A program made the translations under genes and the position numbers. From assembly GCA_031422675.1 (NCBI GenBank), contig JANPMG010000002.1, positions 4,379 to 68,378 on the forward strand: a stretch of 64,000 bases of DNA. Direction: 5' to 3'. The notes under the pieces are model-generated. The model was not told the origin of the DNA, made no database searches, and saw only the letters and a list, made by a program, of their open reading frames with translations. Within the stretch, counting starts at the first letter, position 1. The number at the start of each line of letters is the position of its first letter. The stretch comes from Acidimicrobiia bacterium. Its GTDB lineage: Bacteria > Actinomycetota > Acidimicrobiia > IMCC26256 > JAENVU01. This document shows positions 9,032-62,220 of the stretch, one piece after another.

Positions 9032-9670
9032 TCACGTACGGTGGTCACGCGCCCAGAGCGCAGCCTGGGTCCGGTCGGCCACGCCGAGAGCGGTGAAGAT
9101 CGACGTGAGGTGGGCCTTGACTGTGCGCTCCCGGATGCCGAGCCGGGTGGCGATCTGCTTGTTGGCCAGCCCGAGCGCAACGAGGTCGAGCACCTCGGCC
9201 TCGCGGGTCGTGAGCTTGGGAGTCCGGCGGTGCGATCGCTCGGCATCGAGCAGTGCTCGCGCCGCGAGCGGATCCAGCGGTGCCTCTCCGGCATGGGCCG
9301 ATCGGATGGCAGCGATCACCTCTTCCGGGGTGGCGTGCTTGAGTAGGTATCCGCTCGCGCCCGCGTGCAGCGCCGCGAGCACCGTCTTCTGTTCGGCGAA
9401 GGACGTGAGCGCGATGACGTGCACCCGCAGATCGAGCTCGGCGGCGCGGTCGCACACCTGCCGGGTGGCCTCGATGCCGCCGATGCCCGGCATCGAGAGA
9501 TCCATGAGCATGACGTCCGGTCGGTGCAGCTCGAGCAGGTCGACGGCCGCTTCGCCGGTGCCCACTGCGGCGATCAGCTCCATGTCGGCGACGTTGGCCA
9601 CAACCTGTTCGAGGCCACGTCGGACCACCTCGTGATCGTCGACCACCACGATCCGCAGCGGTTCGGTCAT
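9032..9670 (-). CDS. NarL/LuxR-family response regulator
   Basis: Receiver domain (IVVVDDHEVVRRGL...DVMLMDLSMPG) plus a LuxR HTH (LTTREAEVLDLVALGLANKQIATRLGIRERTVKAHL). Confidence 0.93.
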   Translation of the reverse strand: MTEPLRIVVVDDHEVVRRGLEQVVANVADMELIAAVGTGEAAVDLLELHRPDVMLMDLSMPGIGGIEATRQVCDRAAELDLRVHVIALTSFAEQKTVLAALHAGASGYLLKHATPEEVIAAIRSAHAGEAPLDPLAARALLDAERSHRRTPKLTTREAEVLDLVALGLANKQIATRLGIRERTVKAHLTSIFTALGVADRTQAALWARDHRT

Positions 9671-14281: not shown

Positions 14282-14638
14282 ATGCAGCCGCTCGACATCC
14301 ATCACGTGTCCATCAACGTCGCCGATGTCCCGGCCGCGGTCAGCTTCTATACCGACGTGCTCGGGGCTTCGCTCCGAGATGATCGCCCCGACTTCGGTTT
14401 CGGGGGTGCCTGGCTGGACTTCGGCGGCCGCCAGCTGCACCTCATCGAAGCTCCGGTGCCGGCCAACCACGGGCAGCACTTCGCGGTCCGGGTGGAGGAT
14501 CTTCCGGCCACGGTCGAGGAACTCCGCGGGCGCGGCTTCGACATCACCGACGCGACCCCGGTCGGATCCGGGCTGCAAGCGTTCATGACCGATCCGTCGG
14601 GCAACGCGATCGAGCTTCACCAGGTCGATGTCCGGTAG
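14282..14638 (+). CDS. VOC / glyoxalase-family protein
   Basis: IHHVSINVADVPAAVSFYTDVLG...HFAVRVEDL...FMTDPSGNAIEL. Confidence 0.85.
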   Translation: MQPLDIHHVSINVADVPAAVSFYTDVLGASLRDDRPDFGFGGAWLDFGGRQLHLIEAPVPANHGQHFAVRVEDLPATVEELRGRGFDITDATPVGSGLQAFMTDPSGNAIELHQVDVR

Positions 14639-17600
14639 CGATACCAACGTGGCGCCTGACCCCAATCAGCGGATCACGCCGTACCTGCCGCGGTTGGTGA
14701 TCGATTGGATCCGCGACGAACCCGCAGTGCTGGCGCGTCGCCTTGACGGCACGATCGTGTTCATCGACGTGTCCGGGTTCACCAAACTCTCCGAACGCCT
14801 GGCGCGCGCCGGAAACGTCGGTGCCGAAGAGCTCGCCGAGACGATCGGCTCCACCTTTTCCGAACTCCTCACGGTCGCCTACGCGAACGGTGGCGGTCTC
14901 GTGAAGTTCGGCGGCGACGCGCTGTTCCTCTTCTTCTCCGGTGAGCATCACGCCAGCCGAGCTTGCGCGTCGGCGATCGGCATGCGCGCGACGCTCCGAG
15001 ATCAGGGCACGCTGACCGTGCTCGGTCAGCACGTTCGGCTGCGCATGTCCATCGGAGTGCACACGGCCGGCTTCGAGTTCTTTCTCGTCGGGAACAGCCA
15101 TCGCGAACTGGTGGCCGCCGGTCCCGGCATCAGCGCGGTCGCCGAACTCGAAGGTGCAGCCGAGGCCGGCGAGATCCTGATCAGCCCCGAGACCGCCGGC
15201 CTGATCGCGCGGTCGCTGGTGGGAAACGCGAAGGGGCCGGGATTGCTCCTGCGGCGGGCGCCGCGCGGGAAGCTGGTCACCGCCGTTGATTTCACGCCGC
15301 TCGAACTGGACGGGGGGATCGACCTCGCCACCTGTGTCCCCGCCGGATTGCGGTCGTCGATCGTCGGCGCGAGTCAACGCGAGCACCGGCGGGTGGCGGT
15401 CGCGTTCATCCACTTCGACGGCACGGACGAACTCATCCGCGATTCGGCGCTCGATGAGGTTGCGGACCGCATCCGACAGTTGGTGACGACGATCCAGGAG
15501 GCAGCCGACCGGAACGGCGTCACGTTCCTCGCCACCGATGTCGACCGAGACGGCGGCAAGATCATCCTGACCGCCGGCGCGCCCTCGGGCTCGGGTGACG
15601 ACGAACGACGCATGTTGCTGGCGCTGCGTGAGATCGTCGAGGCACCGCTGACGATCCCCGTACGGATCGGTGTCAATCGAGGGTTCGTCTTCGCGGGCGA
15701 CGTCGGCCCGGCCTACCGCCGCACCTACACGGTGATGGGCGACACCGTGAACCTGGCGGCCCGACTCATGGCCCACGCGTCGCCCGGTGAGATCCTCGCC
15801 ACGAGAGAGATCCTCGATCGTTCGCCCACCGCGTTCGCGCTCGATCCGGTCGAGCCCTTCTTCGTCAAGGGGAAGACCGAACCGGTCGAGGCCTGGCGGG
15901 TCGGGCCGGTACTCGGTGCGAAACCCGACGTCGAGAAGCTCGTCTTGGCGTTCACCGGCCGCGAAGCGGAACTCACGGCGTTGACGGCCGCGCGCGATTC
16001 GGCCCGGGACGGGATCGGTCGGGTGGTCGAGATCGTGGGTGCGGCCGGGATGGGGAAGTCTCGCCTCGTCGACGAGATCCGGGCTCGGTGTGAGGGGATG
16101 ATCGCGTCTTCGACCCGGTGCGAGCTCTACGAAGCCACCACTCCGTACTTCCCGCTGCGCGCCATCCTGCGGTCGCTCCTCGGCTTGGACCCGAATCGTC
16201 GCACCGATGCTGATGCCGAGCGGCTCGGTGACGCGATCGGAGCGGTGGCCGCCGAACTGGTGCCCTGGGCGCCGCTGCTCGCGATCGTCGCCGACGTACC
16301 GATGGCGGGTACGCCCGAGACCGATCGGCTGGAGGAGAAGTTCCGCGCCGCGCGCCTCGAGGCGGTGGTGCGGGAGGTCTTCACCGCGCTGCTCCCGACC
16401 CCGACCGTCCTCGTGATCGAGGACGCACAGTGGATCGACGAATCGTCGGCCCGGCTGCTTCGATCGCTGCTCGCGGACGTGAGCGAGCGGCCCTGGCTGG
16501 CGGTGATCACGCGCCGCGAGGACGCGCTGCGAACCGCGTTCGTGCCGCCGGGCGGCGTGGTGATGCACCTCGGTCCGTTGGCCCGGGAGGACGTCACGAA
16601 CCTCTTGCGTGATGCCACCCAAGATGTGCGGATCTCGGACGATCAAATCGAAGCGTTGGCGGAACGGTCCACCGGGAACCCGCTGTTCGTGCAGGAGCTC
16701 GTGGCGGCCGCCGGTTCGACGATGGCGATATCGGGCATTCCCGAGTCGGTCGAGGCACTCGTGGGCGCGAGCATCGACCGGTTGCTTCCCCAGGACCGAG
16801 ACCTGCTCCGCCGGCTCGCAGTGCTCGGGCGGTCGTTCCCGGAACACCTCGTCTCGGCCGTGTTGGAGACCTCGACGGTCGACTCGTCGGCGTGGAGTCG
16901 AGTGGAAGAGTTCCTGGTGCGCGATTCGTCCGGGCGATTGAGTTTCGAACACGCCCTGGTGCGCGACTCGGCCTACGAAGGTCTCGCGTATCGAGCGCGC
17001 AAGGATCTGCACTCGCGCGTCGGCGATGCGCTTCGTGACCGCGCCGGCACCGAGGGCGACGACCCGGTCGAGCTGCTGTCGTTGCATTTTCTCCGGGCGG
17101 AGCGATACGCGGAGGCGTTCGGATATTCGCGCGCGGCTGCCGAAGCGGCGCGTGAGATCTTCGCGGACCGAGAAGCCGCGGAACTGTACGAGCGCGCCCT
17201 GGAAGCGGCCCGCCATCTGCCGGACGTCACCAGCCGCGACCACGCCGGGCTCCGTGAACTCCTCGGCGATGTCCGTCACCGCAGCGGCGCGTTCGCCGAT
17301 GCCTTGACCGCATACCGGGATGCACGCCGATTTGTGCGCGGCGACCCCATTATCGAAGCCCGCCTCCAGCTCAAGGTGGCGTGGATCCGGGGATGGCTCG
17401 ATCGGTATTCGGAGGCGCTCCGAGCCATCACTCGCGGTCTCCGAGTGCTCGATGGCGTCGAAGGTCACGACGCCGCATGTCAACGGACAGCGATGCTCGC
17501 GTGGTACGCGCAGTTCTGCGAGGAGGGCGGAAAACATCGCCGCGCGATCGCGTGGGCTGAGAAAGCCATCGAGGCGGCGGAGGCGGCGCCGGATCGGAGT

Positions 17601-18527
17601 GGGCTCGCCCACGCGCTGAAGATCATGGGCTGGGCGCAGATGGAACTCGGCGAGCTCGAGACCGCGTCCACGCTGCGCCGGTCCCTTGCCCTGTACGAGA
17701 CGCTCGACGACCTTCCCGGCCAGGCCAGCGTTCTCAACATGCTGGGTGGGTTCGCCTACTGGCGCGGTGAGTGGGACGAAGCGCTGCTCCGCTACGAACG
17801 TGCGCGCGAGCTTTCCTCCCGCACCGGCAACACGGTTCTGGGCGCGTTCTGCGCAACGAACATCGGGGAGATCGCACTCGACCGGGGCGAACTCGAGCTC
17901 GCCGGTGCGCTATTCCGCGATGCGGCGAGGGTGTGGCGAGTGGCAGGCGACCGGCCCGGCTCGGCGTTCGTGAAGTTGCTCCTCGGTCGCACCGCCGCCG
18001 GCGCGGGTCGCTACGACGAGGCGCTCGAACTCCTGACCGAGGCCCAACACGAGTCGATGGAGGTCGGCGCGCAGGTAGATGCGCTGGAAGCGGCCGCGCG
18101 TATCGCCGAGTGCCACCTGGCGGCTGGGCGCCCGGCGGACGCGCTGCGCGTGGTGGACGAGACGATGGCCCAGGCTCAGGCGCTGGGCGGGGTCGCCGCG
18201 CAGACGCCGATGCTCGAGCGGACGCGCGGCCTCGCCCTCGTGGGGCTGCGCCGGATCGACGAGGCTCGCGCCGCCCTCGACATGAGTCTCGGTTCGGCGC
18301 GTTCCCGGCACGCGGCGTTCGAGATCGCGCTTTCGATGCTGGCGCTAGTCCGAGTGATCGAAGACCCGGCCGAGCGGGCGCGGGCCCAGGACGAGAGCGC
18401 CGCCATCCTCGCTCAGTTGGGGGTCTGGGTGATTCCCGAGATCTTCAATGCGTGGCCGCCGGCCGCGAAGCCAGCCACCGAGCCAGCCACCGGGAATGCC
18501 GCGCCACAGTCCGACGAGCGCGGCTGA
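14628..18527 (+). CDS. Large signalling protein: two class III nucleotidyl cyclase domains + P-loop STAND/AAA ATPase + TPR-like C-terminal repeats
   Basis: Cyclase 1 is IVFIDVSGFTKLSE...GGLVKFGGDALFLFF. Cyclase 2 is VAVAFIHFDGTDEL...YTVMGDTVNLAARLM...FFVKGKTEPVEAW. The Walker A is IVGAAGMGKSRLV. A long helical repeat region (LALYETLDD..., AGRYDEALELL) follows. Confidence 0.88.
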   Translation: MSGSDTNVAPDPNQRITPYLPRLVIDWIRDEPAVLARRLDGTIVFIDVSGFTKLSERLARAGNVGAEELAETIGSTFSELLTVAYANGGGLVKFGGDALFLFFSGEHHASRACASAIGMRATLRDQGTLTVLGQHVRLRMSIGVHTAGFEFFLVGNSHRELVAAGPGISAVAELEGAAEAGEILISPETAGLIARSLVGNAKGPGLLLRRAPRGKLVTAVDFTPLELDGGIDLATCVPAGLRSSIVGASQREHRRVAVAFIHFDGTDELIRDSALDEVADRIRQLVTTIQEAADRNGVTFLATDVDRDGGKIILTAGAPSGSGDDERRMLLALREIVEAPLTIPVRIGVNRGFVFAGDVGPAYRRTYTVMGDTVNLAARLMAHASPGEILATREILDRSPTAFALDPVEPFFVKGKTEPVEAWRVGPVLGAKPDVEKLVLAFTGREAELTALTAARDSARDGIGRVVEIVGAAGMGKSRLVDEIRARCEGMIASSTRCELYEATTPYFPLRAILRSLLGLDPNRRTDADAERLGDAIGAVAAELVPWAPLLAIVADVPMAGTPETDRLEEKFRAARLEAVVREVFTALLPTPTVLVIEDAQWIDESSARLLRSLLADVSERPWLAVITRREDALRTAFVPPGGVVMHLGPLAREDVTNLLRDATQDVRISDDQIEALAERSTGNPLFVQELVAAAGSTMAISGIPESVEALVGASIDRLLPQDRDLLRRLAVLGRSFPEHLVSAVLETSTVDSSAWSRVEEFLVRDSSGRLSFEHALVRDSAYEGLAYRARKDLHSRVGDALRDRAGTEGDDPVELLSLHFLRAERYAEAFGYSRAAAEAAREIFADREAAELYERALEAARHLPDVTSRDHAGLRELLGDVRHRSGAFADALTAYRDARRFVRGDPIIEARLQLKVAWIRGWLDRYSEALRAITRGLRVLDGVEGHDAACQRTAMLAWYAQFCEEGGKHRRAIAWAEKAIEAAEAAPDRSGLAHALKIMGWAQMELGELETASTLRRSLALYETLDDLPGQASVLNMLGGFAYWRGEWDEALLRYERARELSSRTGNTVLGAFCATNIGEIALDRGELELAGALFRDAARVWRVAGDRPGSAFVKLLLGRTAAGAGRYDEALELLTEAQHESMEVGAQVDALEAAARIAECHLAAGRPADALRVVDETMAQAQALGGVAAQTPMLERTRGLALVGLRRIDEARAALDMSLGSARSRHAAFEIALSMLALVRVIEDPAERARAQDESAAILAQLGVWVIPEIFNAWPPAAKPATEPATGNAAPQSDERG

Positions 18528-48589: not shown

Positions 48590-50017
48590 TCAGCGGTGGC
48601 GGGTCAACGCCAGCGTCGCCGCGTGGTGGCCGCCCATGCCGTGGACTCCGCCACCGGGAGGAGTCGACGAAGAACAGAGGTACACGCCGTCGAGTGACGT
48701 GGCCCAGGGGTGGAGCGACACGACCGGCCGGGTGAAGATCTGGCGGAGGTCACCGGCACCACCGTTGATGTCGCCGCCGACGTAGTTGGGGTTGTGCGTC
48801 TCCATCGCCACGGTGTTCATCACGTGCCGCGCGAGTACGACGTCGCGGAATCCCGGTGCGAACCGCTCGATCTGGCTCTCCATGGCCTCGGTGCGGTCCA
48901 GCGTTGATCCGTTCGGCACGTGGCAATAGGCCCACGCCACGTGTTTGCCGGCCGGCGCCCGACTCGGATCCATCACCGTCGGCTGCACCAGGAGGGTGAA
49001 CGGCTGCTCGGGATGACCGCCGGTCGCAACTACGTCCTCGGATGCGGTGATCTCGTCAAGCGTGCCGCCGACGTGCACCGTGCCACTCGTTCGGGCGCCG
49101 GGGTTGGTCCACGGGATCGGGCCGTCGAGTGCCCAGTCGATCTTGAACACACCGGGTCCGTACCGGTACCGCGTGAGGGCGCGTCGCGCGTGACCGGTGA
49201 CGCGGTCGCCGGCCATGGCGAGGAACTGGCGCGGCGTGACGTCGAGCAGCGTGATGGGCGCGGGGGGAAGATCGGCGAGATCGGCGACGAGGTGATCCAC
49301 GACGATCTCGCCGCCACCGCGGACGAGAATCGCGCCGAGGGCATCGGCGAGTCGCTGGCTGCCCCCGCGCGCGACCGGCCAACCGTTCGCGTGGGCGAGC
49401 AGGTTGAGGAACAACCCGTAACCCGCAGTCCCGAGGTGGTCCAAGGGTTGGATCGCGTGCGCGGCGGATCCGGCGAGCAGGGCCCGGGGCTCGTCCTCGC
49501 GGAAGTGAGCACGCGCCAGGCCGCGAGCGCTCCGGATCGCGTGACGACCGAACGCCGCGGCGCGGAACGGAGCCCGGGGAAACCGCAGTGGTGAGAGCAG
49601 GGTTGCGACGAGGGTCTCCCGGTGTGCGACGAGTGGTCCCATCAGCGCTCGGTACCGCCGCCCGTCGTCGGGACCGAACGCGGCGGTGGTCGCGCTGATG
49701 TCGCGGTGGAGTAGCGCGGCGCGGCCGCCGTCGAGCGGATGGGCGATGGCGATCTCGGGCGTGCACCACTCGACGCCGTGCGCTTCGAGCGCGAGGTCGG
49801 CAAATGCGGGCGACGCGACTCCGAGCGCCTGCACCGTCGAGCAGATGTCGTGGACGAAGCCGGGCCGGGTGAGTTCGGCCGAACGCATCCCCCCGCCGAT
49901 GACCGATGCTGCTTCGAGGAGCAGCACCCTCCGACCGGCCCGGGCCAGGGTGATCGCACCCACGAGACCATTCGGCCCGGCCCCCACCACGACCGCGTCG
50001 TACTCGCTGGTGCTCAT
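48590..50017 (-). CDS. FAD-dependent oxidoreductase (phytoene desaturase/CrtI-like family)
   Basis: ATG 50017. YDAVVVGAGPNGLVGAITLARAGRRVLLLEA (GxGxxG), with the C-terminal LCSSSTPPGGGVHGMGG. Confidence 0.85.
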   Translation of the reverse strand: MSTSEYDAVVVGAGPNGLVGAITLARAGRRVLLLEAASVIGGGMRSAELTRPGFVHDICSTVQALGVASPAFADLALEAHGVEWCTPEIAIAHPLDGGRAALLHRDISATTAAFGPDDGRRYRALMGPLVAHRETLVATLLSPLRFPRAPFRAAAFGRHAIRSARGLARAHFREDEPRALLAGSAAHAIQPLDHLGTAGYGLFLNLLAHANGWPVARGGSQRLADALGAILVRGGGEIVVDHLVADLADLPPAPITLLDVTPRQFLAMAGDRVTGHARRALTRYRYGPGVFKIDWALDGPIPWTNPGARTSGTVHVGGTLDEITASEDVVATGGHPEQPFTLLVQPTVMDPSRAPAGKHVAWAYCHVPNGSTLDRTEAMESQIERFAPGFRDVVLARHVMNTVAMETHNPNYVGGDINGGAGDLRQIFTRPVVSLHPWATSLDGVYLCSSSTPPGGGVHGMGGHHAATLALTRHR

Positions 50018-50179
50018 GTGGATCTCCGATCCGACCGAGATTGCTGACGTTCCATTCTCGATCTCCATCGTGCGCGAGACGAGTGCGTCCCCATGAACGT
50101 CGACGGTGATGCTGACACCCTCGACTCACGATCATCGGAAAGCGCCGCGATCAGCCGTACCGCGTTCTAACCTCAGCTC

Positions 50180-50842
50180 GTGGCATTTCGGGTCGTCGTG
50201 GCCGAGGACAACTACCTCGTGCGGGAAGGCGTGGTGCGCCTCCTCGATGCGCAGCCGGAGATCGAAGTGGTCGGCGCGTACGAGGACTTCGACACGTTGC
50301 TCGCCGGCGTCGCCGCGGTGCAACCCGATGTCGTGATCACCGACATCCGGATGCCGCCCACCGGGACCGACGAGGGGGTCCGCGCCGCGAATGTACTCCG
50401 AGAGGAGTATCCCGGCATCGGGGTCGTGGTCCTCAGCCAGTACGTGGAACCGGCGTATGCCCTCGCGCTCCTGGAGTCCGGCTCGGATCGTCGTGCCTAC
50501 CTCTTGAAGGAACGGGTCTCGGACGTCGATCTGCTCATCCGCGCCATCGAGGCGGTGGCCGACGGCGGTTCGGTCATCGATCCTCAGGTGATCGACGCCC
50601 TGGTGGCCGCCCGATCTCGCCACCGATCGCCGCTCGATTTCCTCACGCCCCGTGAGGGCGAAGTCCTCACCGAGATGGCACTCGGTCGGAACAATGCCGG
50701 CATCGCCGGCGCACTTGGACTCTCGGAACGCGCAGTCGAGAAGCACATCAACGCGCTGTTCTCGAAGCTCGGCGTCTCGGAAGAGCCTGATGTCCACCGC
50801 CGCGTGAAAGCGGTGTTGCTGTGCCTTTCGGAGCAATCGTGA
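50180..50842 (+). CDS. NarL/LuxR-family response regulator
   Basis: GTG start. VVVAEDNYLVREGV...VVITDIRMPP and the LuxR HTH LTPREGEVLTEMALGRNNAGIAGALGLSERAVEKHI. Confidence 0.92.
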   Translation: MAFRVVVAEDNYLVREGVVRLLDAQPEIEVVGAYEDFDTLLAGVAAVQPDVVITDIRMPPTGTDEGVRAANVLREEYPGIGVVVLSQYVEPAYALALLESGSDRRAYLLKERVSDVDLLIRAIEAVADGGSVIDPQVIDALVAARSRHRSPLDFLTPREGEVLTEMALGRNNAGIAGALGLSERAVEKHINALFSKLGVSEEPDVHRRVKAVLLCLSEQS

Positions 50843-50960
50843 GCGGCGGCACGCCCCGCAGTCGGCTCACCAGGTCGGCGGCGTCGGGGGTACTGGCACC
50901 CCCGACCCGGGCCACACGGGCACGGTTCCCCCGGTGACCGACTCACGCGACGATGACGCC

Positions 50961-51335
50961 ATGACGGCGGTTCCCGTGCTCATTGTCGACGACCAAGTGC
51001 CGTTCCGACGCGCCGCACGGATGGTCGTCGCGGTCACGCCCGGCTTCGAGGTGGTCGGCGAGGCGACGTCGGGCGAGGAAGCGGTGGAGCAGTTCGAGAT
51101 GCTGGAACCCGGGCTCGTCCTCATGGACATCAACCTGCCCGGGATCAGCGGCATCGAAGCCACGCGTCGGATCACCGAGTCGCATCCGGACGCAGTGGTC
51201 GTCCTGCTGTCGACCTATCGGGCCGATGATCTCCCGGCCGACGCCGCGACCTGCGGCGCCGCGGGCTACGTGAACAAGGAACAGTTCGAATCGGCCGTGG
51301 TCGTCGACCTTTGGGCGCAACGCAACCGCCCCTGA
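50961..51335 (+). CDS. Stand-alone receiver-domain (CheY-like) response regulator
   Basis: MTAVPVLIVDDQVPFRR...LVLMDINLPGISG...VVVLLSTY...GYVNK. No output domain. An alternative start is GTG 50934. Confidence 0.88.
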   Translation: MTAVPVLIVDDQVPFRRAARMVVAVTPGFEVVGEATSGEEAVEQFEMLEPGLVLMDINLPGISGIEATRRITESHPDAVVVLLSTYRADDLPADAATCGAAGYVNKEQFESAVVVDLWAQRNRP

Positions 51336-53553: not shown

Positions 53554-54270
53554 TCAGACCGAGGCGGGATCGCGCGTGGAATCGCGGATCTCGGTGTCGG
53601 TCTCGATGCGACCATCGCGCATGAACACGATCCGATCCCCCGCTTCGGCCACATCCCGGTCATGGGTCACGAGCAGGATGGTCTGGCCGTTGGCATGGAG
53701 TCGACGGAACAGTTCGAGCACCTCGTGCCCACCCTCGGAGTCGAGCGCGCCGGTCGGCTCGTCGGCGAGGAGCAGCGTCGGTTCGTTGGCGAGGGCGCGC
53801 GCGATGGCGAGCCGCTGTCGTTGCCCGCCGGAGAGGACCCCGGGCGCGTCCTTCGCCTTCTCGGCGAGGCCGAGCAGGTCGAGGAGATCCCGAGCCCGGG
53901 TCTCGGCTTGTTTGCGGGGCGCACCGGCGATGACCGCCGGGAGCGTGACGTTCTCGAGCGCGGTCATCCCCTCCAGGAGATTGAAGAACTGGAACACGAT
54001 CCCGATATGGCGGCGACGCATGATCGCGAGTTCGTCCTCGGTCTGGCCGATGAGGGACTCCCCGGCCACTTCGAGCGTGCCGTCGGTGGCGGCGTCGAGT
54101 CCGGCGACCAAGTTCAACAAGGTCGATTTCCCACACCCCGACGGCCCCATGACGGACACGAAGTCGCCGCGGTGCATCTCGAAATCGACGCCGCGCAGCG
54201 CCCGCACCGGGGCACCTTCGGACTCGAAGTTCTTGCGCAGTCCCTGGGTCCGTACGACGACGTCAGTCAC
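53554..54270 (-). CDS. ABC transporter ATP-binding protein (MacB/LolD/FtsE-like), with no adjacent permease gene
   Basis: Walker A GPSGCGKST, Q-loop, signature LSGGQRQR, Walker B LLLADEPT and H-loop VTHD. Confidence 0.92.
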   Translation of the reverse strand: MTDVVVRTQGLRKNFESEGAPVRALRGVDFEMHRGDFVSVMGPSGCGKSTLLNLVAGLDAATDGTLEVAGESLIGQTEDELAIMRRRHIGIVFQFFNLLEGMTALENVTLPAVIAGAPRKQAETRARDLLDLLGLAEKAKDAPGVLSGGQRQRLAIARALANEPTLLLADEPTGALDSEGGHEVLELFRRLHANGQTILLVTHDRDVAEAGDRIVFMRDGRIETDTEIRDSTRDPASV

Positions 54271-54325: not shown

Positions 54326-55633
54326 TCATGGTCCGAGTCCTTCGATGCGGAACGCGCGGACGGGGGTCTGGCGACCCTTCACGAGCTGCTCGCCGAGGTC
54401 GTCATGCGCCGGCACGGTCTCGAGCGCGTCGAGGGTCGACTTCGCGACGACAACACAGCCGGCCGGTCGAGCCAGATCCTGGAGTCGTTGCGCCAAGTTC
54501 ACCGTGTCGCCGACGAGCGTGTACTCGAGGTGCTCTTCGGATCCGAGCATCGCCGCGGCGACGAGACCGGTGGAGATTCCGATTCCGAGTCCGAACGGTG
54601 CGAGGCCGCGCTGCGCCCAGTCGCCATCGAGTTCGACCTGGGCGCGGATCATGGCGAGCGCAGCGTCGAGACCGCGCTGCGCGTGGCTCGGTTGAGGAAC
54701 GGGCGCACCGAAACATGCCATCACCGCGTCCCCGACGAACTGCATGACCGTGCCGTCACGGTCGAGGATCGCCCGGTTCATCGCGGCGCGATGTTCGTTG
54801 AGCTGGCCGGCGAGCGCGCTCGGGTCCGCCTGCTCGGCAATGGCCGAGTAACCGCGTACGTCCGACATCAACACCGTGACCGTCAACTCCTCGGTCTCGC
54901 CGATCCGGCCGCCCCCGGCGCGAACTTTCGCGGCGACGCCGGTCGGCAACGATCGACTCAGTGTCTCGCCCTGCTCTTCGCGATCGACGATCGCTTGGTG
55001 GAGGAGACGGAGCCGGCGCAACGCGCTGGATCCCCCTGTCCTGGCTTCCTCCGAGAGCTTGACGAACATCGCTTCCACCGCAGTTGCGATCGCGGCCGGC
55101 GTCGTGCGCTCCATTGCCGCGATGGCCTTGATCGGCTTGCCCTCGGCGACGAGTTGGAGCAGCCGATCCTGCTCTGCGCTGAGGCCGCTGTCCTGCGCGA
55201 CAGGCGAGACGATCGCGGCGACGATCTTGGGGTCGAGCAGCGATCCGCCCGCCGCGACTTCGCGCACACTCCGCGCGAGCTGGTCGCCCTCCGCGATGCT
55301 GTCCTTCAGAAGGTAGGCGTAGCCCGCGGCACCGTCGGACAGCAACGCCACCGCGTACTCGGGGTCGTCGTACTGGGACAGGACCACCACCCCCATGCCG
55401 GGGTGGCGGCGGCGCAGCTCCTTGGCCGCATCGATGCCCTCCTGCTGGAACGTCGGTGGCATCCGAATGTCGGTGACCAGGACCTGGGGCGCGGCGTCGG
55501 TTGCACCGGTCATCAGCGTTTCGTAGTCGCCGGCGACGCCGACGATCTCGATGTCGGATTCCATGGTCAGGAGCGCCCGCACGCCCTCCCGGACGATGAC
55601 GTTGTCGTCGGCGAGGAACACACGGATCGGCAC
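54326..55633 (-). CDS. Response regulator receiver + LuxR-like HTH + class III adenylate/guanylate cyclase fusion
   Basis: REC: IRVFLADDNVIVREGV...VLVTDIRMPP. HTH-like: LSAEQDRLLQLVAEGKPIKAIAA. Cyclase: VTVLMSDVRGYSA...MQFVGDAVMACFG...YTLVGDTVNLAQRL...VKGRQTPVRAF. I prefer the GTG 55633 start; the alternative, ATG 55789, adds 52 disordered residues. Confidence 0.85.
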   Translation of the reverse strand: MPIRVFLADDNVIVREGVRALLTMESDIEIVGVAGDYETLMTGATDAAPQVLVTDIRMPPTFQQEGIDAAKELRRRHPGMGVVVLSQYDDPEYAVALLSDGAAGYAYLLKDSIAEGDQLARSVREVAAGGSLLDPKIVAAIVSPVAQDSGLSAEQDRLLQLVAEGKPIKAIAAMERTTPAAIATAVEAMFVKLSEEARTGGSSALRRLRLLHQAIVDREEQGETLSRSLPTGVAAKVRAGGGRIGETEELTVTVLMSDVRGYSAIAEQADPSALAGQLNEHRAAMNRAILDRDGTVMQFVGDAVMACFGAPVPQPSHAQRGLDAALAMIRAQVELDGDWAQRGLAPFGLGIGISTGLVAAAMLGSEEHLEYTLVGDTVNLAQRLQDLARPAGCVVVAKSTLDALETVPAHDDLGEQLVKGRQTPVRAFRIEGLGP

Positions 55634-55787
55634 CCGATCAGCATTCCTGCTCGGCGCGGCCGGAGCAAGGTGGTTCGTGCCCGCATCCGTGGTGGGGCTA
55701 TCACCCCCACGATGTTGGGGCTTGCGCCCTCGATCGCGGGCCGGCTCGGCCGTACCGTGAGCTTCGCCGGCCCTGGAGGGAGACGAC

Positions 55788-56786
55788 ATGCGTATCGAGA
55801 GTTCGGTCACATCCGTTTCGTGGATCCCGTCCGAAGCCGTGAGCGGCTTGAACAGGGGAGCCTTCGAATCTGGGTTCACGCACTACGACAACCCCCCGCC
55901 GGAGCGGATCGCGAACCTCGCTGCGCTCGGTGACGCGGACGGGTTCCGGTTCGCCAACCGGCTCGCGGCGTGGATCGACGTCGACGCCGATGGCCGGATC
56001 GCGGACGCGGGTTACGCCGGTGGGGGTGTGATGGGGGCGACCACGATTCGTCTCGGTCCGAAAGCCGCGACGTTCGAAGCGGTTGCCCTCGATGATCTCC
56101 AGACTGATGTGGTCCGCCTCGGACACGCGGTGCGCTTCGTGCAGACGACGGGCGGCAGAACCGCGCTCCCGGCGCCGCGTCGCGTCAACCGGCCACCCTT
56201 CGTGCAGTTCCGGGCGCCGACGGTGTGGACCACGCTCGCGCTCACGATCCGCACCGACGGAACGACCGAACACGAGGTGGTGGGCGCGAGCAAGTTCCCG
56301 CGCCACTGGATCTATGACGCGCGCCTCGAGCTGGTGGAGAAGATCGGACTCGCGGACTTCAAGGGGTGGTACCGCAACTCGTTCGGGCGCAAGACGCCGT
56401 GGGGGAATGAGAACTCGCCGGCGCTGGTGACGGCGGTCGAGACGGCACTCGAGCGACGCCTCTCCACCACGATCATGCGCGGTGGCACGAAGCCCGACGT
56501 GCGGACGGTGAAGGCCGGTGCGACGCTGGTCAGACAGGGTGACCCCGGGGACGAGTTGTTCCTCGTCCTCGACGGCGTGCTGCGGGTCGATGTGGACGGT
56601 GTGGCCATCGGCGAACTCGGCCCGGGTGCGGTGCTCGGCGAGCGGGCCGTGCTCGAAGGGGGTACCCGAACCTCCACCTTGACCGCGGCGACGAAGTGTC
56701 GGATCGCGGCGGTGCCGGCGGATCTCCTGGACCGTGAGGCTCTCGAAGCCCTGCGCACCGGCCACCGCCGCGAGGCGAAGGATTGA
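55788..56786 (+). CDS. Protein with an N-terminal domain of about 235 aa (unknown function) and a C-terminal cyclic-nucleotide-binding (CAP/CNB) domain
   Basis: The C-terminus, VKAGATLVRQGDPGDELFLVLDGVLRVDVDG..IGELGPGAVLGERAVLEGGTRTSTLTAATKCRIAAV, matches the cNMP-binding beta-barrel with a phosphate-binding cassette. The N-terminal part has no motif I recognise. Confidence 0.8.
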   Translation: MRIESSVTSVSWIPSEAVSGLNRGAFESGFTHYDNPPPERIANLAALGDADGFRFANRLAAWIDVDADGRIADAGYAGGGVMGATTIRLGPKAATFEAVALDDLQTDVVRLGHAVRFVQTTGGRTALPAPRRVNRPPFVQFRAPTVWTTLALTIRTDGTTEHEVVGASKFPRHWIYDARLELVEKIGLADFKGWYRNSFGRKTPWGNENSPALVTAVETALERRLSTTIMRGGTKPDVRTVKAGATLVRQGDPGDELFLVLDGVLRVDVDGVAIGELGPGAVLGERAVLEGGTRTSTLTAATKCRIAAVPADLLDREALEALRTGHRREAKD

Positions 56787-56949
56787 CTCGACTCACTGAT
56801 CTCGACGAACCGTATGAATCGGATGAAACCCGATGAAAAGCTCTCCCCATAAATGGGGATATCGGCCTATCTAGTGCGTACAGCCCGAGACAGTTGGAAC
56901 CCGACAAACGTACTATCGACTCCTTCTTCGGGCGATAGGGAGTTTGTCA

Positions 56950-59900
56950 GTGGTTGGTACAGCACGTCGTCTCTTCGCGGCCTTCGCCGGTGCGACCGTC
57001 GTTCTCTCCGGGCTGGCGGGACTCGGACTGGCGGGACTCGGGCCGGTCGGAGTCGGGCCGGCCGGCGCGGCGCCGACCGCCGGGATTCCGTCATTGTCGC
57101 TGAATCGCGCGTACACCACGGCACCGTTCGCCGGTACTGCAACCGCCGCGTCGGGGCAGGAGGGTTCCGCCTTCGTCCCGGCCGACAACGCGGTGTGGTT
57201 GGCGGACCCCACTAAGGCGTACGAAGTGGACGCCACCACCGACGCGTTGCGGCGGGTCATCCCGACCGCGAACTTCACCAACGCGCTCCCGGTCGGGGGG
57301 GTCGGTGCACCCGCCGGCGCCAGCCGCAGTGATTCCTTCGCCGCGGTGGCGTACGACCCGAGCGCGGACGCGCTCTATGTGTTCTCGCGCAACTGTTGCA
57401 CCGCGCTCGGCCTGGACCCGACGGTGTTCCGCCTCCTGCGGGACGGCGGCGGCGCGTTCCAGGTCGAGTCGTATCAAGCCCTGCCCGCGGGTATCGACCC
57501 GAAGGGTGCCGGCTACCGCGCCGGCGTCGGCCTGTACTTCGGCAAGGGCGCCAAGATCCGGACGTACGACTACGCGACGAACGGCCTCGGCGCCGACATC
57601 ACCATCCCCGGCATCGATGCCGCCGTCGGCGGTATGGCGTTCTCGCCGGACGGCAACGACCTGTACCTCACCACGTTCGTGGCTGCGGTCAGTCCCAACC
57701 CGGCGAGCATCAAGCTCGTGCGAATCAACACCGCCACGTGGACGGTCGTGCCGAACTGGAATCTCGACCTGACGTCGTTCGGTGTCCTCGACCCCCGGGC
57801 GGTCGAGCTGGTGGGTGACCAGATCTACGTCTCCGACGGCGGTGCTCGTCCGGCCGGCGATCCGTTGCGGCGGGCCGTCTTCGTGTTCGACGTGTTGGAC
57901 CTGAGCGTCCAACCGACCGCATCCTTCAGCGCCACCCCGGTCGCGGGTCAGTTCCCGCTTCCGGTGCAGTTCAGCGACACGAGTCAGGGCGGTCCCACGA
58001 GTTGGGCATGGGACTTCGGCGACGGCGCCACGTCGAACCTCACGAACCCGACCCACACCTACGCCGTCGCCGGGAGCTACACGGTCACCTTGACTGTCAC
58101 GAACTCGAAGGGCACCGACACCTCGACCCGGACGGATCTCGTCACGGTCCAGGATCAGCTCCCGATCGCGGGCTTCACCGCCACCCCGACCACCGGCCAG
58201 TACCCGCTGGCGGTCGACTTCACCGACACGAGCGTCAAGCACCCGATCTCCTGGGCGTGGGACTTCGGCGACGGTTCGACGTCGACGGCGCAGAACCCGT
58301 CACACACCTACGCCAATCCCGGCAACTACGCCGTGTCGTTGACCGTCACCAACGGCACGGGCTCGAACACGCGCGTGCGCTCGGACTTCATCCACGCCGT
58401 CGCCGGTACCACCACGTTGACGCCCGTCGCGGACTCCTACGTGCGCTCGGACCAGGCCAACGCGAACTTCGGGACCCAGACCACGCTCCAGGCCCAGTTG
58501 AACTCAGCGTCGTACCAGCCGTTCGTCCGATTCGATGTTGGTTCACTTCCGCAGCAGCCCACCAGCGCGACGCTGCGATTGTTCGTCACCGACTCGGGTA
58601 CGACGACCGGGGTCCTGCGCCAGACCACCGCGACCTGGGGTGAGGCGGCCCTCACGTGGAACAACAAGCCGTCCACGACCGGGCCACAGATCGGGACCGC
58701 CGCGGTTCCGACTGCGGGGTCGTGGGTCGAACTCGACGTGAGTTCGGTGGTCACGACCGCGGGCGCGTACGGCTTCGTGCTGACGAACAACAGCTCGGAC
58801 CCGGTCGCCTATTCGAGCCGTCAGGGCGCAAATCCGCCCCAGCTGCGACTCACGTTCGCCACCGCGCCGACGACCAACCTCCCGAACCCGCCGAATGTCG
58901 GGCTGCGCCTCAACCGCGCGTTCACCACGTCGCCGTTCCGCGGCACCGCGACGTCGGCCCGTGACGAAGAAGGTTCGGCCTACGTCCCGTCCGACAACGC
59001 GCTGTGGCTCATGGACGACAACGCCGGTCGCATGTACGAGACCGATGCCACCACCGGTGATCTGCGCCGCGTGATCCCGACCGCCGACTTCACGAATGCC
59101 TTGCCGGTTGGCGGCGGTGCCGCAGCGGGACCGACGCGTACCGACGACCTCGAGTCGTTGTCCTATGACCCGACCACCGACACGCTCTACGTTGCAAGCG
59201 GCAACTGTTGCGGGGTCGCGCCGTTCAACCCCACGATCTTCGAACTGACTCGTGACGGCGCCGGCCGATTCCAGGTCAAAGACTTCAACGCGCTGCCCGA
59301 AGGCACTGATCCCACCGGCTCGGCGTGGCGCGCCGGTCCCGGCGGCGGGATCCACTTCGTCAAAGGTCAGAACATCACCCCGTACGACTTCGCCACCAAC
59401 ACGGTCGGGACCCCGATTCAGGTCCTGGGTGTGGATGTCGGGCTCGTGGGTGCAACGTTCACCCCCGACGGGCAAGATCTGCTGGTCACCAGTCACCTGA
59501 ACAAGCTCTACCGGGTGGACCCCTCCACGTGGAGCGTCGTCCCCGGCTGGTCCTTCGACCTGACGCCGTACGGCATCGTCGATCCGCGCGCGGTCGAGGT
59601 CGTCGGTGACCAGTTGTTCATCTCCGATGGGTACGACTCCCGCCCGGTGGGCGACCCACTCCGCTACGCGATCTTCGTGCTGGACATCGTCGACGGCTCG
59701 GACGCGCCGGTGGCTGGATTCACCGCGTCGCCCACCTCAGGCATTGCGCCCCACGTAACCACCTTCACCGATCGCAGCACCGGGGTCCCGACCGTGTGGC
59801 TGTGGAACTTCGGCGACGGCACTTCCTCCGTGGAGCAGAACCCGGCGCACTCCTACCGCGACGCGGGCACCTACAGCGTCACGCTGACGGTGACGAACTC

Positions 59901-62220
59901 CAAGGGCACCGCGACCACCACCCAGACGGACCTGGTGACGGTCGCCGTCAACCCGCCGCTCCTCAACGCGAAGTTCACCGGCACGCCGACCTCGGGGGTG
60001 GCCCCGCTGGCGGTCCAGTTCACCGATGCCAGCGTCGGCGGAGTCACCGCCTGGGCGTGGGACTTCGGTGACGGATCCACGGAGACGGTTCAGAATCCCA
60101 CGCACGTGTACGCCGCCAACGGCACGTACACGGTGAAGCTCACGGTCACGTCGGCGAGCGGCACGAACACCCGTATCCGTTCGAACTACGTGAACGTGGC
60201 CGCGGCACCCGTGACCCTCGCCGCCGCCGCCGATAGCTACGTGCGATCGAACGCGACCGGGTCGAACTTCGGTACCGAAGCCTCCGTCCAAGGTCAGAAC
60301 ACCGGTGGCCGGAACGCGGTCGTCTACCAGCCGTACTTCCGGTTCTCGGTAGGAAGCCTGCCCGCCGCGCCGACGAGTGCGAAGGTCCGCCTGTTCGTCA
60401 CCAACGCGAGCGCAACGAGCGGTCAGCTCTTCCGGACCGCCTCGGCCACCTGGTCCGAGACCGGGATCACGTGGAACAACCGGCCCGGAACCACGGGCGT
60501 GTCGCTCGGCGCAAGCCGCAACGCGCCGCTCGGCCAATGGGTCGAGTTCGACGTGAGTTCCACCGTCACCGGGCCCGGCCAGTACAGCTTCACGCTGACC
60601 AACTCGAGCAACGACCTGGTGGCGTACTCGAGTTGGCAGGGCGCGAATGCACCCCAGCTCGTGCTGAGTTTCCCGGCCCCGACGACGAGTGGGGGACTTC
60701 CCGCGCTCGCCACGCCGAGTCTGGCGTTGAGCCGCACGTTCACCGCCGCACCGTTCTCGAACACGAGCGTGCTCGCGCACGACCTCGAGGGTTCGGCCTA
60801 CGTTCCGGCCGACGACGCACTCTGGCTCTCGGACGACAACTGGGACCGCGCCTACGAAGTGGACGCGACCACGAGCATCCTGCGCCGCACGCTCGCCCGA
60901 TCGGACTTCTCCGAGGCGCTGCCGGTCGGTGGCGTGGGCGAGCCGGCCGGTCTCAGCCGGACCGACGATCTCGAGTCCATAGCGTATGACCCCGTCGGCG
61001 ATGTGCTGTACCAGTTCTCCGGGAACTGCTGTGGCGCGGGTCCGATGGATCCGACCGCGTTCCGCCTACTGCGCGACATCGACGGCAACTTCCAGGTGGA
61101 GTCGTACCAACCGTTGCCCGAGGGGACCGACCCGACCGGCGCGGGATGGCGTCCCGGAAGTGGCCTGTTCTTCACCCACGGCGGCGGTGTCGCCGACTAC
61201 GACTACGCGTCCAACACCGTCGGCGCCACCAACCTCGTGACGGGCGTCAACGGCGGCATGGCCGGCGTGACCTTCACGCCCGACGGCACACAGATGATCG
61301 TCGTCACCACGACCGATCGGTTGCAGGTGATCGACGTCGCGACGTGGACCGTGATGCCGGGGCTCGACTTCGATCTCGCGCCCCACGGAGTGGTCGACCC
61401 TCGGGCCGTGGAACTCGTGGACGGCCAACTCTTCGTCTCCGATGGCGACGACCTCCGCTCGCCCGAGGATCCGCTGGAGTACGCCGTCTTCGTCTTCGAC
61501 CTGGCCGAGGCCCCACCCTCGCCGGAGTTCACCGCCACGCCCACCTCCGGTGCCGCACCGCTGACGGTGCAGTTCACGGACGCGACCATCGGTGTCGCGA
61601 CCGGTCGGATCTGGGACTTCGGTGACGGCACGAGGTCGATCGCGACGAACCCGTCGCACGTGTACACGTCGGTCGGTCAGTACACCGTGTCACTGGTGGC
61701 GGCGAACGCGAACGGTTCGAACACCGTGACCAAGCCGAATCTGATCAGGACGACGTTCGCTCCAGTGACCACGACTGCGGTGGCGGACAGTTACGTGCGC
61801 TCGGACCGGTCCAGCTCGAACTTCGGCACGGCCACCACGATGCAGGGCTACCGGAAGGGCGGCACCACGTACGAGCCGTACTTCCGGTTCTCGGTCGGCG
61901 CGTTGCCTGCAGCACCGGTCACGGCCAAGGTCCGGCTCTTCGTGACGGACTCGAGCAATGTGACGGGTTCGCTCTATCGGTCGGCGAACACTACGTGGAC
62001 CGAGACCGGAATCACGTGGAACACGCGACCCGGCACGATTGGCGCAGCGCTGAGCGCGAGCAAGAACGCGCCACTCGGCCAGTGGGTGGAGTTCGACGTG
62101 ACGACGACGGCCACCGCCGCCGGTGAATACAGCTTCACCCTCACCGGTGCCGGCACCAACCGGGTGGCGTTCTCGAGCCGCCAGGGTGCCAACGGGCCGC
62201 AGCTCGTCCTCGGTTTCTGA
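56950..62220 (+). CDS. Giant secreted protein: 3 x [beta-rich module + PKD domain(s) + DNRLRE-like carbohydrate-binding-type domain]
   Basis: GTG 56950 follows the RBS agggag; the ORF track starts at TTG 56944. The N-terminus is signal-like. PKD signatures (WDFGDG..S....P.H.Y...G.Y.V.L.V.N) occur 5 times. DSYVRS...NFG...Y.P.FRF.V.SLP......A.LRLFVT........TW.E..ITWN..P domains occur 3 times. Confidence 0.9.
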   Translation: MVGTARRLFAAFAGATVVLSGLAGLGLAGLGPVGVGPAGAAPTAGIPSLSLNRAYTTAPFAGTATAASGQEGSAFVPADNAVWLADPTKAYEVDATTDALRRVIPTANFTNALPVGGVGAPAGASRSDSFAAVAYDPSADALYVFSRNCCTALGLDPTVFRLLRDGGGAFQVESYQALPAGIDPKGAGYRAGVGLYFGKGAKIRTYDYATNGLGADITIPGIDAAVGGMAFSPDGNDLYLTTFVAAVSPNPASIKLVRINTATWTVVPNWNLDLTSFGVLDPRAVELVGDQIYVSDGGARPAGDPLRRAVFVFDVLDLSVQPTASFSATPVAGQFPLPVQFSDTSQGGPTSWAWDFGDGATSNLTNPTHTYAVAGSYTVTLTVTNSKGTDTSTRTDLVTVQDQLPIAGFTATPTTGQYPLAVDFTDTSVKHPISWAWDFGDGSTSTAQNPSHTYANPGNYAVSLTVTNGTGSNTRVRSDFIHAVAGTTTLTPVADSYVRSDQANANFGTQTTLQAQLNSASYQPFVRFDVGSLPQQPTSATLRLFVTDSGTTTGVLRQTTATWGEAALTWNNKPSTTGPQIGTAAVPTAGSWVELDVSSVVTTAGAYGFVLTNNSSDPVAYSSRQGANPPQLRLTFATAPTTNLPNPPNVGLRLNRAFTTSPFRGTATSARDEEGSAYVPSDNALWLMDDNAGRMYETDATTGDLRRVIPTADFTNALPVGGGAAAGPTRTDDLESLSYDPTTDTLYVASGNCCGVAPFNPTIFELTRDGAGRFQVKDFNALPEGTDPTGSAWRAGPGGGIHFVKGQNITPYDFATNTVGTPIQVLGVDVGLVGATFTPDGQDLLVTSHLNKLYRVDPSTWSVVPGWSFDLTPYGIVDPRAVEVVGDQLFISDGYDSRPVGDPLRYAIFVLDIVDGSDAPVAGFTASPTSGIAPHVTTFTDRSTGVPTVWLWNFGDGTSSVEQNPAHSYRDAGTYSVTLTVTNSKGTATTTQTDLVTVAVNPPLLNAKFTGTPTSGVAPLAVQFTDASVGGVTAWAWDFGDGSTETVQNPTHVYAANGTYTVKLTVTSASGTNTRIRSNYVNVAAAPVTLAAAADSYVRSNATGSNFGTEASVQGQNTGGRNAVVYQPYFRFSVGSLPAAPTSAKVRLFVTNASATSGQLFRTASATWSETGITWNNRPGTTGVSLGASRNAPLGQWVEFDVSSTVTGPGQYSFTLTNSSNDLVAYSSWQGANAPQLVLSFPAPTTSGGLPALATPSLALSRTFTAAPFSNTSVLAHDLEGSAYVPADDALWLSDDNWDRAYEVDATTSILRRTLARSDFSEALPVGGVGEPAGLSRTDDLESIAYDPVGDVLYQFSGNCCGAGPMDPTAFRLLRDIDGNFQVESYQPLPEGTDPTGAGWRPGSGLFFTHGGGVADYDYASNTVGATNLVTGVNGGMAGVTFTPDGTQMIVVTTTDRLQVIDVATWTVMPGLDFDLAPHGVVDPRAVELVDGQLFVSDGDDLRSPEDPLEYAVFVFDLAEAPPSPEFTATPTSGAAPLTVQFTDATIGVATGRIWDFGDGTRSIATNPSHVYTSVGQYTVSLVAANANGSNTVTKPNLIRTTFAPVTTTAVADSYVRSDRSSSNFGTATTMQGYRKGGTTYEPYFRFSVGALPAAPVTAKVRLFVTDSSNVTGSLYRSANTTWTETGITWNTRPGTIGAALSASKNAPLGQWVEFDVTTTATAAGEYSFTLTGAGTNRVAFSSRQGANGPQLVLGF
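57100..62217 (+). repeat. Three tandem intragenic modules (about 1809, 1818 and 1491 nt)
   Basis: The modules start at LNRAYTTAPF (57100), LNRAFTTSPF (58909) and LSRTFTAAPF (60727). By eye they are about 50% identical at the protein level. The third lacks one PKD domain. Confidence 0.85.

Follow-up and report, generated by a model that had tools for sequence, protein, structure and literature searches.

A cyclic nucleotide-binding protein with an uncatalogued N-terminal domain, encoded next to a receiver-domain class III cyclase in Acidimicrobiia

Two divergent genes at positions 54326 to 56786 of a 64,000-nucleotide stretch of DNA from an Acidimicrobiia bacterium (contig JANPMG010000002.1 of assembly GCA_031422675.1, positions 4,379 to 68,378; the window is this whole stretch) encode a class III nucleotide cyclase that carries a receiver (REC) domain and a second protein, hereafter the receptor, in which an N-terminal domain (N-domain) precedes a C-terminal cyclic nucleotide-binding (CNB) domain. 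In the initial annotation, made from the sequence alone, this pair was likened to the cyclase-effector pairs of Pycsar-type anti-phage signalling, and the N-domain was left without a family. What, then, is the function of this locus, phage defence or regular signalling, and what kind of domain is placed under the control of a cyclic nucleoside monophosphate (cNMP)? The comparative analysis described here shows a pair that looks like ordinary chromosomal signalling, not phage defence, and an N-domain that is a conserved soluble domain of a new, uncatalogued family. What is new is this output domain within bacterial cNMP signalling; the kind of system itself is not.

A divergent cyclase-receptor gene pair

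The gene pair comprises the following elements:

55788..56786, plus strand: receptor gene, 332 amino acids (aa), novel N-terminal domain and C-terminal cNMP-binding domain (open reading frame, Pfam, homologues)
55788..56492, plus strand: N-domain, aa 1-235, beta-rich, soluble, of no known family (AlphaFold2 model, conservation)
56493..56783, plus strand: CNB domain, aa 236-332 (PF00027, Foldseek, alignment to the PKG cassette, conservation)
54326..55633, minus strand: cyclase gene, 435 aa from GTG 55633; receiver, NarL-like linker or helix-turn-helix (HTH) remnant, class III cyclase
55319..55621, minus strand: receiver domain (PF00072), with the LADDN acidic pocket, the TDIRMPP phospho-acceptor, the Ser in VVLSQY and the Lys in YLLKD
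55040..55192, minus strand: LuxR/GerE-like HTH remnant, LSAEQDRLLQLVAEGKPIKAIA...TTPAAIATAVEAMFVKL (NCBIfam NarL/MadR models)
54365..54883, minus strand: class III cyclase catalytic domain (PF00211; alignments to 3r5g, 1wc0 and 2w01)
55634..55787, no strand: divergent intergenic spacer, 154 bp, presumably with both promoters, and with the Shine-Dalgarno sequence of the receptor gene

Both open reading frames (ORFs) lie where the initial annotation had placed them, and every peptide string quoted there occurs in the translations. The divergent arrangement is confirmed as well, with one correction of the coordinates, namely, the start of the cyclase, which moves from 55879 to 55633. The cyclase ORF is open over 54326..55879 on the minus strand (517 aa), conservation among 52 cyclase orthologues begins at ORF residue 85, and the GTG at 55633, which yields the 435-aa protein, has AGGAA 10 nt upstream; this GTG rather than 55879 is probably the true start. 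The genes are therefore predicted to be divergent and non-overlapping, separated by the 154-bp spacer, in which scans for sigma-70 consensus sequences, terminators and operator-like repeats detected nothing above chance. The ATG of the receptor gene at 55788 is preceded, 5 nt upstream, by a strong Shine-Dalgarno sequence, GGAGGGAG (55775-55782), and the receptor homologues all start with MR[IV]ESSVTS.SWIPSEA.

The sole Pfam domain of the receptor is cNMP_binding (PF00027; aa 239-315, E 5.6e-18, 65.1 bits compared to the gathering score of 27.5), which confirms the CNB domain that had been proposed for the C-terminus. The phosphate-binding cassette LGERAVLEGGTRTS is intact (E285, R294, T295) and aligns position by position to FGERALLYDEPRSA of PKG; R294 is invariant among the receptor homologues, with at least 90% conservation of E285 and T295. 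The concern raised in the initial annotation that the cassette might lack the nucleotide-contacting Arg and Glu residues thus does not apply. The GHRRE motif at the C-terminus, which is kept in both close and distant receptor clades, may act as a lid or contact the base. A full-length model of the receptor (mean predicted local distance difference test, pLDDT, 69.5; built from 30 close full-length homologues) shows fold similarity solely to CNB domains, with 595 matches in the PDB at E<=1e-3, the top 50 of which are all CNB domains; these include CRP, GlxR, PKA, PKG and HCN, found with Foldseek at E ~1e-7, and MloK1. The protein contains no transmembrane segment: the maximum 19-residue Kyte-Doolittle mean is 1.53 and falls within the CNB beta-strands.

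The N-terminal domain

Searches with the N-terminal 233-235 aa retrieved nothing from Pfam even at E<=10, and when 38 diverse members of the family, down to 39% identity, were scanned against Pfam one by one, there was no recurrent match. Similarly, the N-domain matches no NCBIfam or PADLOC model and has no meaningful match in PDB sequence searches (phmmer and profile), which bears out the original impression that these ~235 residues belong to no catalogued family. For the PADLOC TIR-effector and PycTIR models, the alignment to the receptor is confined to aa 235-314, that is, to the CNB domain, and a TIR domain was not found; together with the hydropathy profile, this shows that the presumed effector domain is, as first described, neither transmembrane nor TIR.

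Modelled alone with AlphaFold2 from the 38 diverse sequences, the N-domain gives a confident structure (pLDDT 87.8; predicted template modelling score 0.83) that consists of ~14 beta-strands, a few short helices and a long terminal helix running into the CNB domain. The fold search that had been recommended for residues 1-235 detects no housekeeping family and a sole significant PDB match, to 3c5p, the structure of BAS0735 from Bacillus anthracis (Foldseek E 1.4e-4, probability 1.00). The two folds are superimposed over ~207 aligned columns, which cover nearly the whole 193-aa chain, with template modelling scores of 0.44 by query and 0.52 by target, a root-mean-square deviation of 9.2 A and 15% identity, a borderline similarity if a score of at least 0.5 is taken to denote the same fold. 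BAS0735 is a structural-genomics protein of unknown function that, unlike the receptor, stands alone without a CNB domain and shows no match to the N-domain at the sequence level; a literature search on BAS0735/3C5P returned unrelated papers only. All remaining PDB fold matches are at chance level, and the search of viral folds in BFVD yielded nothing at E<=1e-3.

Ten residues are invariant among the 38 diverse members (W12, P14, R54, G122, W147, G158, P171, H173, P204 and W205), and 17 further residues are at least 90% conserved, many of these polar, such as D34, N57, Q119, T120, R124, D157, S168 and R172. The concentration of invariant or conserved polar and aromatic residues (R54, N57, Q119, T120, R124, D157, R172, H173 and several tryptophans) suggests that the N-domain holds a small-molecule-binding or catalytic pocket rather than being a simple scaffold.

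Three other interpretations of this domain were tried and rejected. An internal duplication is not apparent in the comparison of the two halves (aa 1-112 and 113-212; hhalign probability 0.2%). A YD/RHS-like resemblance, which consists of a 'YDxxGxL' hairpin and one weak RHS_repeat match (E 0.014) in 1 of the 38 members, was judged to be due to chance. Nucleic-acid binding was also dismissed: the protein of the window is basic (isoelectric point 9.4), yet most members are acidic (median 5.6). Given this acidity, DNA binding is unlikely for the receptor as well, which has the same CNB fold and cassette as CRP and GlxR (Foldseek to the M. tuberculosis CRP and GlxR, E ~1e-7) but, unlike these regulators, lacks a C-terminal HTH.

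A precedent for a soluble actinobacterial receptor that combines CNB with a domain that does not bind DNA in one polypeptide is mycobacterial Pat (Rv0998/MSMEG_5458), a CNB-GNAT protein acetyltransferase in which the CNB domain controls the attached domain. The NCBIfam model for Pat aligns to the receptor within CNB (E 2.3e-5). However, the output domain of Pat is a GNAT domain located C-terminal to CNB, whereas that of the receptor is unrelated and N-terminal.

Family size and distribution

The receptor family includes at least 7,876 proteins (word-indexed search, E<=1e-3, 8,000 candidates scored), and an exhaustive search of 50%-identity representatives yielded 1,250 clusters. The best 120 homologues are 65-100% identical, ~330 aa long and nearly all contain the CNB domain; a search started from a 39%-identical member again recovered ~316-330-aa proteins carrying CNB. 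Longer representatives fall into two groups, tandem-CNB variants and apparent read-throughs into an adjoining gene for a metallo-beta-lactamase (MBL)-fold protein, with occasional fused receptor-MBL gene calls (P0255, P0262). As the initial annotation had proposed to check, the N-domain is essentially always fused to a CNB domain. In one protein (P0136, 472 aa), two tandem CNB domains follow the N-domain.

Relatives are encoded in at least 480 species-representative genomes. For the analysis of gene neighbourhoods, six-frame translations of 80 loci from such genomes were searched with the proteins of the window; all 80 genomes are metagenome-assembled genomes (MAGs), mostly labelled Acidimicrobiia, Microthrixaceae or Ilumatobacteraceae, and identity across these loci is 57-78%. 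Nine loci with ~60-68% identity and the same gene cluster come from MAGs labelled Bifidobacteriaceae, Dormiibacterota, Saccharimonadales or Acidiferrales (L007, L022, L037, L044, L055, L060, L063, L064, L076). Most of these also keep the Acidimicrobiia-type synteny, and the labels suggest mis-binned contigs or wrong taxonomy rather than wide transfer. No tblastn match to the N-domain was found in 72,556 plasmids or 50,697 phages. A literature search on cNMP signalling in Acidimicrobiia produced nothing relevant.

The cyclase

The N-terminal part of the cyclase (residues are numbered here along the 517-aa ORF opening at 55879) is a receiver domain (Response_reg, PF00072; aa 87-187, E 6.5e-16, 58.9 bits) in which the motifs LADDN, TDIRMPP, VVLSQY and YLLKD are present and conserved in the orthologues. 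The N-terminal half is 42% identical over 202 aa to a NarL-type response regulator encoded 5 kb away (50180..50842), and NarL/MadR-type NCBIfam models align across aa 85-280; the protein thus joins a complete NarL-like regulator to a cyclase. The LuxR/GerE-like HTH within this part is probably degenerate. Pfam GerE gives no match to it at E<=0.01, the region of the recognition helix, TTPAAIATAVEAMF, as we read it, is devoid of the usual basic or polar contacts, and of the three parts of the cyclase, this segment shows the lowest conservation (59% median identity). It may no longer bind DNA, serving instead as a linker or a dimerisation element.

The catalytic domain is recognized with confidence (Guanylate_cyc, PF00211; aa 333-505, E 7e-22, 78.3 bits compared to the gathering score of 21.9), and its best matches are CyaB of P. 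aeruginosa (3r5g), CyaC of Spirulina (1wc0) and Cya2 of Synechocystis (2w01), with E from 1e-23 to 1e-26. The metal-binding D340 and D384 as well as Asn461 and Arg465 are invariant in the 52 orthologues and align with those of the class IIIb adenylyl cyclases CyaB and CyaC; given this conservation, an active homodimer is expected. The identity of the product is less straightforward. At the first of the base-specifying positions, the invariant Gln380 takes the place of the Lys found in CyaB and CyaC and of the Glu found in the guanylyl cyclase Cya2, whereas at the second position, Thr or Ser454 aligns with the Thr shared by CyaB and CyaC. Neither of the canonical pairs, Lys-Asp/Thr for adenine or Glu-Cys/Gly for guanine, is present. 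Rv0386 of M. tuberculosis, which has a Gln-Asn pair, is reportedly an adenylyl cyclase with a guanylyl side activity. On the strength of this precedent and of the invariant Gln in place of Lys or Glu, cyclic AMP (cAMP) appears to be the most likely product, perhaps with relaxed specificity.

Conservation of the cyclase-receptor pairing

In 53 of the 80 species loci, a cyclase catalytic domain is encoded no more than 1.5 kb from the receptor gene, and in 63 no more than 10 kb away; in one additional locus, the contig ends within the REC part of the cyclase. From the density of cyclase domains at distances above 3 kb in these loci (0.011 per kb), only ~4% would be expected per locus. The binomial tail for the observed adjacency is 1.6e-54, a value that overstates independence because the loci are related.

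Three distinct cyclase architectures occur next to the receptor: the divergent REC-HTH cyclase in most lineages, a CHASE2-like membrane cyclase of ~600 aa in MAGs labelled Solirubrobacterales, and an FHA-cyclase, the gene for which, in two loci, stops 4-7 nt short of the receptor gene on the same strand. The CHASE2-like and FHA cyclases are encoded directly upstream of the receptor, on the same strand (loci L013, L026, L052, L067, L070, L082; L017, L020), and appear to have Ala and Ser, respectively, at the first specificity position, judging by eye rather than from a computed alignment. The recruitment of three unrelated architectures to one position is strong evidence of functional coupling between the receptor and the cyclase in this clade. 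The view that the two genes form a functional pair thus holds up across species and across cyclase types.

A proposed chromosomal signalling module

Several further genes of the window recur near the pair in the species loci, most of them as a conserved cluster:

53554..54270, minus strand: MacB/LolD/FtsE-type ABC ATPase (Pfam and NCBIfam), within 10 kb in 45 of 80 loci, median 75% identity
51358..53511, minus strand: membrane histidine kinase with GAF, HisKA_3 and HATPase_c domains (Pfam), in 44 of 80 loci; candidate phosphodonor
50934..51335, plus strand: single-domain receiver protein (Pfam, synteny), a conserved cluster member
50180..50842, plus strand: NarL-type response regulator with REC and GerE domains (Pfam), paralogue of the N-terminal half of the cyclase
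48590..50068, minus strand: CrtI/CrtO-like oxidoreductase dependent on flavin adenine dinucleotide (FAD), matched by NCBIfam phytoene-desaturase families far below the cut-off, in 39 of 80 loci

The conserved cluster also includes an FtsX-type permease of ~830 aa, encoded beside the ABC ATPase in 41 of the 80 loci. The histidine kinase of the window has a long multi-helix N-terminal region.

We consider it fairly probable that the pair is the core of a chromosomal, vertically inherited cNMP signalling module of Acidimicrobiia-type Actinomycetota that operates as a chain of five steps. First, a signal would be sensed by the GAF/HisKA_3 membrane kinase, which would phosphorylate the receiver domain of the cyclase, as suggested by co-location and by the paralogy between the N-terminal half of the cyclase and the NarL-type regulator of the cluster. 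Second, phosphorylation would promote the catalytic dimer and the synthesis of a 3',5'-cyclic nucleotide, consistent with the intact catalytic residues. Third, the divergently encoded 332-aa protein would be the dedicated receptor, a role to which comparative genomics, not biochemistry, points, and would bind the nucleotide via its intact CNB cassette. Fourth, by analogy with other CNB proteins, binding would reposition the connecting helix (approximately aa 214-234) and the C-terminal lid (GHRRE). Finally, and speculatively, this change in CNB might switch the activity of the N-domain. Stable inheritance of the module is supported by the similar levels of identity of its parts across 51 syntenic species (median 62% for the N-domain, 61% for CNB and 64% for the cyclase) and by the composition of the window, in which G+C is uniformly ~68%, with no deviation in the cyclase-receptor region.

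Another recurrent neighbour of the receptor is the MBL-fold (Lactamase_B_2) gene, which is located downstream on the same strand with a gap of 0-64 nt in ~34 of the 80 species loci and within 7 kb in 38. In ~20 loci, the gene that comes next is the CrtI/CrtO-like oxidoreductase. The MBL hydrolase may act as a phosphodiesterase that terminates signalling or, alternatively, as a partner in a common pathway.

A number of observations weigh against the five-step chain or limit its reach. The chain is built from sequence, structure prediction and gene neighbourhood: phosphotransfer from the kinase to the cyclase is proposed from co-location, the Gln/Thr pair does not by itself specify the nucleotide produced, and whether the N-domain is an enzyme or a binder is a guess from the pattern of conservation. 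The MBL protein matches RNase Z and a cyclic-nucleotide phosphodiesterase model weakly and partially (39 bits compared to a cut-off of 400 for the latter), and no homologue of this protein is found anywhere in the window. Furthermore, in a divergent sub-clade of the receptor family (~316 aa, 40-45% identical), the gene resides among housekeeping genes (ruvABC, acyl-CoA metabolism, ftsH), with no cyclase nearby. A search that targeted this sub-clade provided a second adjacency sample, for which purpose alone it was used, of 80 soil-metagenome contigs that encode mostly intermediate family members (41-48% identity); among the 42 loci with at least 2 kb of upstream sequence, a cyclase is present within 1.5 kb in 9. 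The lack of association with cyclases across genomes, named in the initial annotation as grounds for giving up the pairing, accordingly is seen in distant sub-clades only and not in the clade of the window. Because the cyclase is mostly not adjacent in distant members, the family as a whole is best described as a general cNMP receptor, with dedicated pairing confined to the clade of the window. No strong alternative partner was detected in the soil-metagenome sample. An extracytoplasmic function (ECF) sigma factor with a fused zinc-finger anti-sigma-like tail is encoded just upstream on the same strand in ~12 of 63 metagenome loci, including L108 and L166, and is seen in members without an adjoining cyclase.

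Alternative explanations

The alternative that fares best, although we still regard it as unlikely, is that the N-domain is a cNMP-regulated enzyme or ligand binder acting in one pathway with the MBL hydrolase and the CrtI-like oxidoreductase, in metabolic or redox control, in which case the MBL protein would be a pathway enzyme and not a phosphodiesterase. The receptor, MBL and oxidoreductase genes follow each other in this order on one strand in L013, L018, L032, L035, L039, L040, L042, L050, L052, L061, L067, L071, L074, L078 and other loci, and all three are found within 10 kb in 27 of the 80 loci, of which 18 contain a REC-type cyclase, 6 a cyclase of another type and 3 no detected cyclase. 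The linkage of the oxidoreductase to the receptor holds in all cyclase contexts, and the fused receptor-MBL gene calls fit this explanation as well. However, neither gene lies downstream of the receptor in the window, where MBL is missing and the oxidoreductase is encoded 5.7 kb away on the opposite strand; the layout is the same in L006, which, at 76% identity, ranks among the two closest species loci. In addition, MBL is directly downstream in only 5 of 50 metagenome loci, no substrate can be proposed, and the shared pathway overlaps with the signalling module rather than excluding it.

Less likely still, in our judgement, is that the receptor serves the MacB-type ABC transporter or the kinase as a regulatory subunit that depends on cNMP, with the N-domain as a protein-protein docking module and not an enzyme. 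The frequent presence of the ABC ATPase and of the FtsX-type permease in the conserved cluster (45 and 41 of the 80 loci, respectively) is compatible with this role, a HisKA_3 kinase with a NarL regulator and FtsX/ABC being a classic envelope-stress detoxification layout, and CNB proteins tied to ABC exporters do exist (TIGR03896, the CNB part of which matches at E 1e-5). Yet, where the cyclase is CHASE2-like or FHA, the receptor keeps the cyclase and, often, MBL and the FAD oxidoreductase, whereas the ABC and kinase genes of the cluster are not nearby. In the window, the ATPase is present but a tblastn search found no FtsX-type permease gene beside it, and the dense invariant polar loop residues of the N-domain would suit a pocket better than a docking surface.

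An improbable but more consequential version of the signalling module is that the N-domain is a cNMP-switched enzyme of an undescribed fold family and that the cyclases with the invariant Gln, as well as those with Ala or Ser, make a non-canonical cNMP for everyday signalling across an actinobacterial class. If true, this would be a housekeeping counterpart of pyrimidine cNMP signalling which, to our knowledge, is so far represented by phage defence alone.

Abortive infection of the Pycsar kind, in which the cyclase would sense a phage and make a cyclic (pyrimidine) nucleotide while the N-domain would act as a toxic effector, is highly improbable. The formal layout is indeed alike, a class III-type cyclase gene adjoining a gene for a CNB fusion with an unknown second domain; the PADLOC PycC and PycTIR models match the cyclase and CNB domains, the Gly-Glu/Arg cassette is also used by PycTIR (PMC11224242), and the canonical purine-specifying Lys or Glu is missing from the cyclase. 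The PADLOC matches, however, do not extend beyond the cyclase and CNB regions, both of which are generic domains. In Pycsar systems, the effector that accompanies the cyclase is a CNB-TIR or CNB-transmembrane protein, CNB being N-terminal in PycTIR (PMC11224242), whereas in the receptor CNB is C-terminal and neither TIR nor transmembrane segments are present. The cyclase of the window carries a receiver and a NarL-like segment, and receiver domains are not described for Pycsar cyclases; its specificity residues are also unlike F100, R142 and Q144 of the cytidylate cyclase EaPycC (PMC11224242).

The distribution of the family points in the same direction. Defence systems, Pycsar included, are sporadic, whereas the cyclase-receptor pair is chromosomal and conserved, with similar identity for both partners (~62-64%) and synteny with a two-component/ABC cluster, and the receptor gene is present in at least 480 species genomes; the N-domain has no match in plasmids, phages or BFVD, and distant members reside among the housekeeping genes listed above. 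The resemblance to Pycsar signalling from which the question arose is, therefore, not supported: this is a large, conserved, syntenic family without matches in mobile elements, without TIR or transmembrane segments, and with a reversed domain order.

Finally, a chance adjacency, with a receptor that answers the general cAMP pool and has no special tie to its neighbour, would accommodate the other cyclases of the genome, such as that at 14628..18527, and the distant family members without an adjoining cyclase, but is just as improbable given 53 of 80 loci with a cyclase within 1.5 kb instead of the ~4% expected and the three unrelated architectures at the same position.

Implications

Most of what is known about cAMP and cGMP in bacteria comes from regulators of the CRP type and a small number of mycobacterial enzymes. 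The receptor family is hosted by widespread, mostly uncultured soil and water Actinomycetota, and a type of cNMP-controlled activity not seen before could emerge from its N-domain. Conserved linkage to a cyclase driven by a two-component system offers a fully wired, testable pathway, from signal to kinase, cyclase, nucleotide and receptor, and the invariant Gln at the base-specifying position makes this cyclase a useful case for the study of substrate selection. Naming the N-domain and its activity would provide annotation for thousands of hypothetical proteins currently described as 'cyclic nucleotide-binding domain-containing'. The pair should be left out of any count of defence systems.

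Other genes in the window

A second class III cyclase gene in the window, at 14628..18527 (plus strand), is a 1,299-aa ORF with Guanylate_cyc (aa 331-418 matched), AAA_16 and TPR domains, similar to the Rv0386/STAND-like type; there are therefore several cyclases in this genome. The receptor gene is directly followed by a 1,758-aa ORF (56944..62220, plus strand) that consists of three large repeats, each containing PKD domains and CBM96, and in locus L003, the receptor gene is followed by a fragmented equivalent of this ORF. At 9074..10314 (minus strand), tblastn matches to the cluster proteins reveal a second pair of a HisKA_3-type kinase and a NarL-type regulator.

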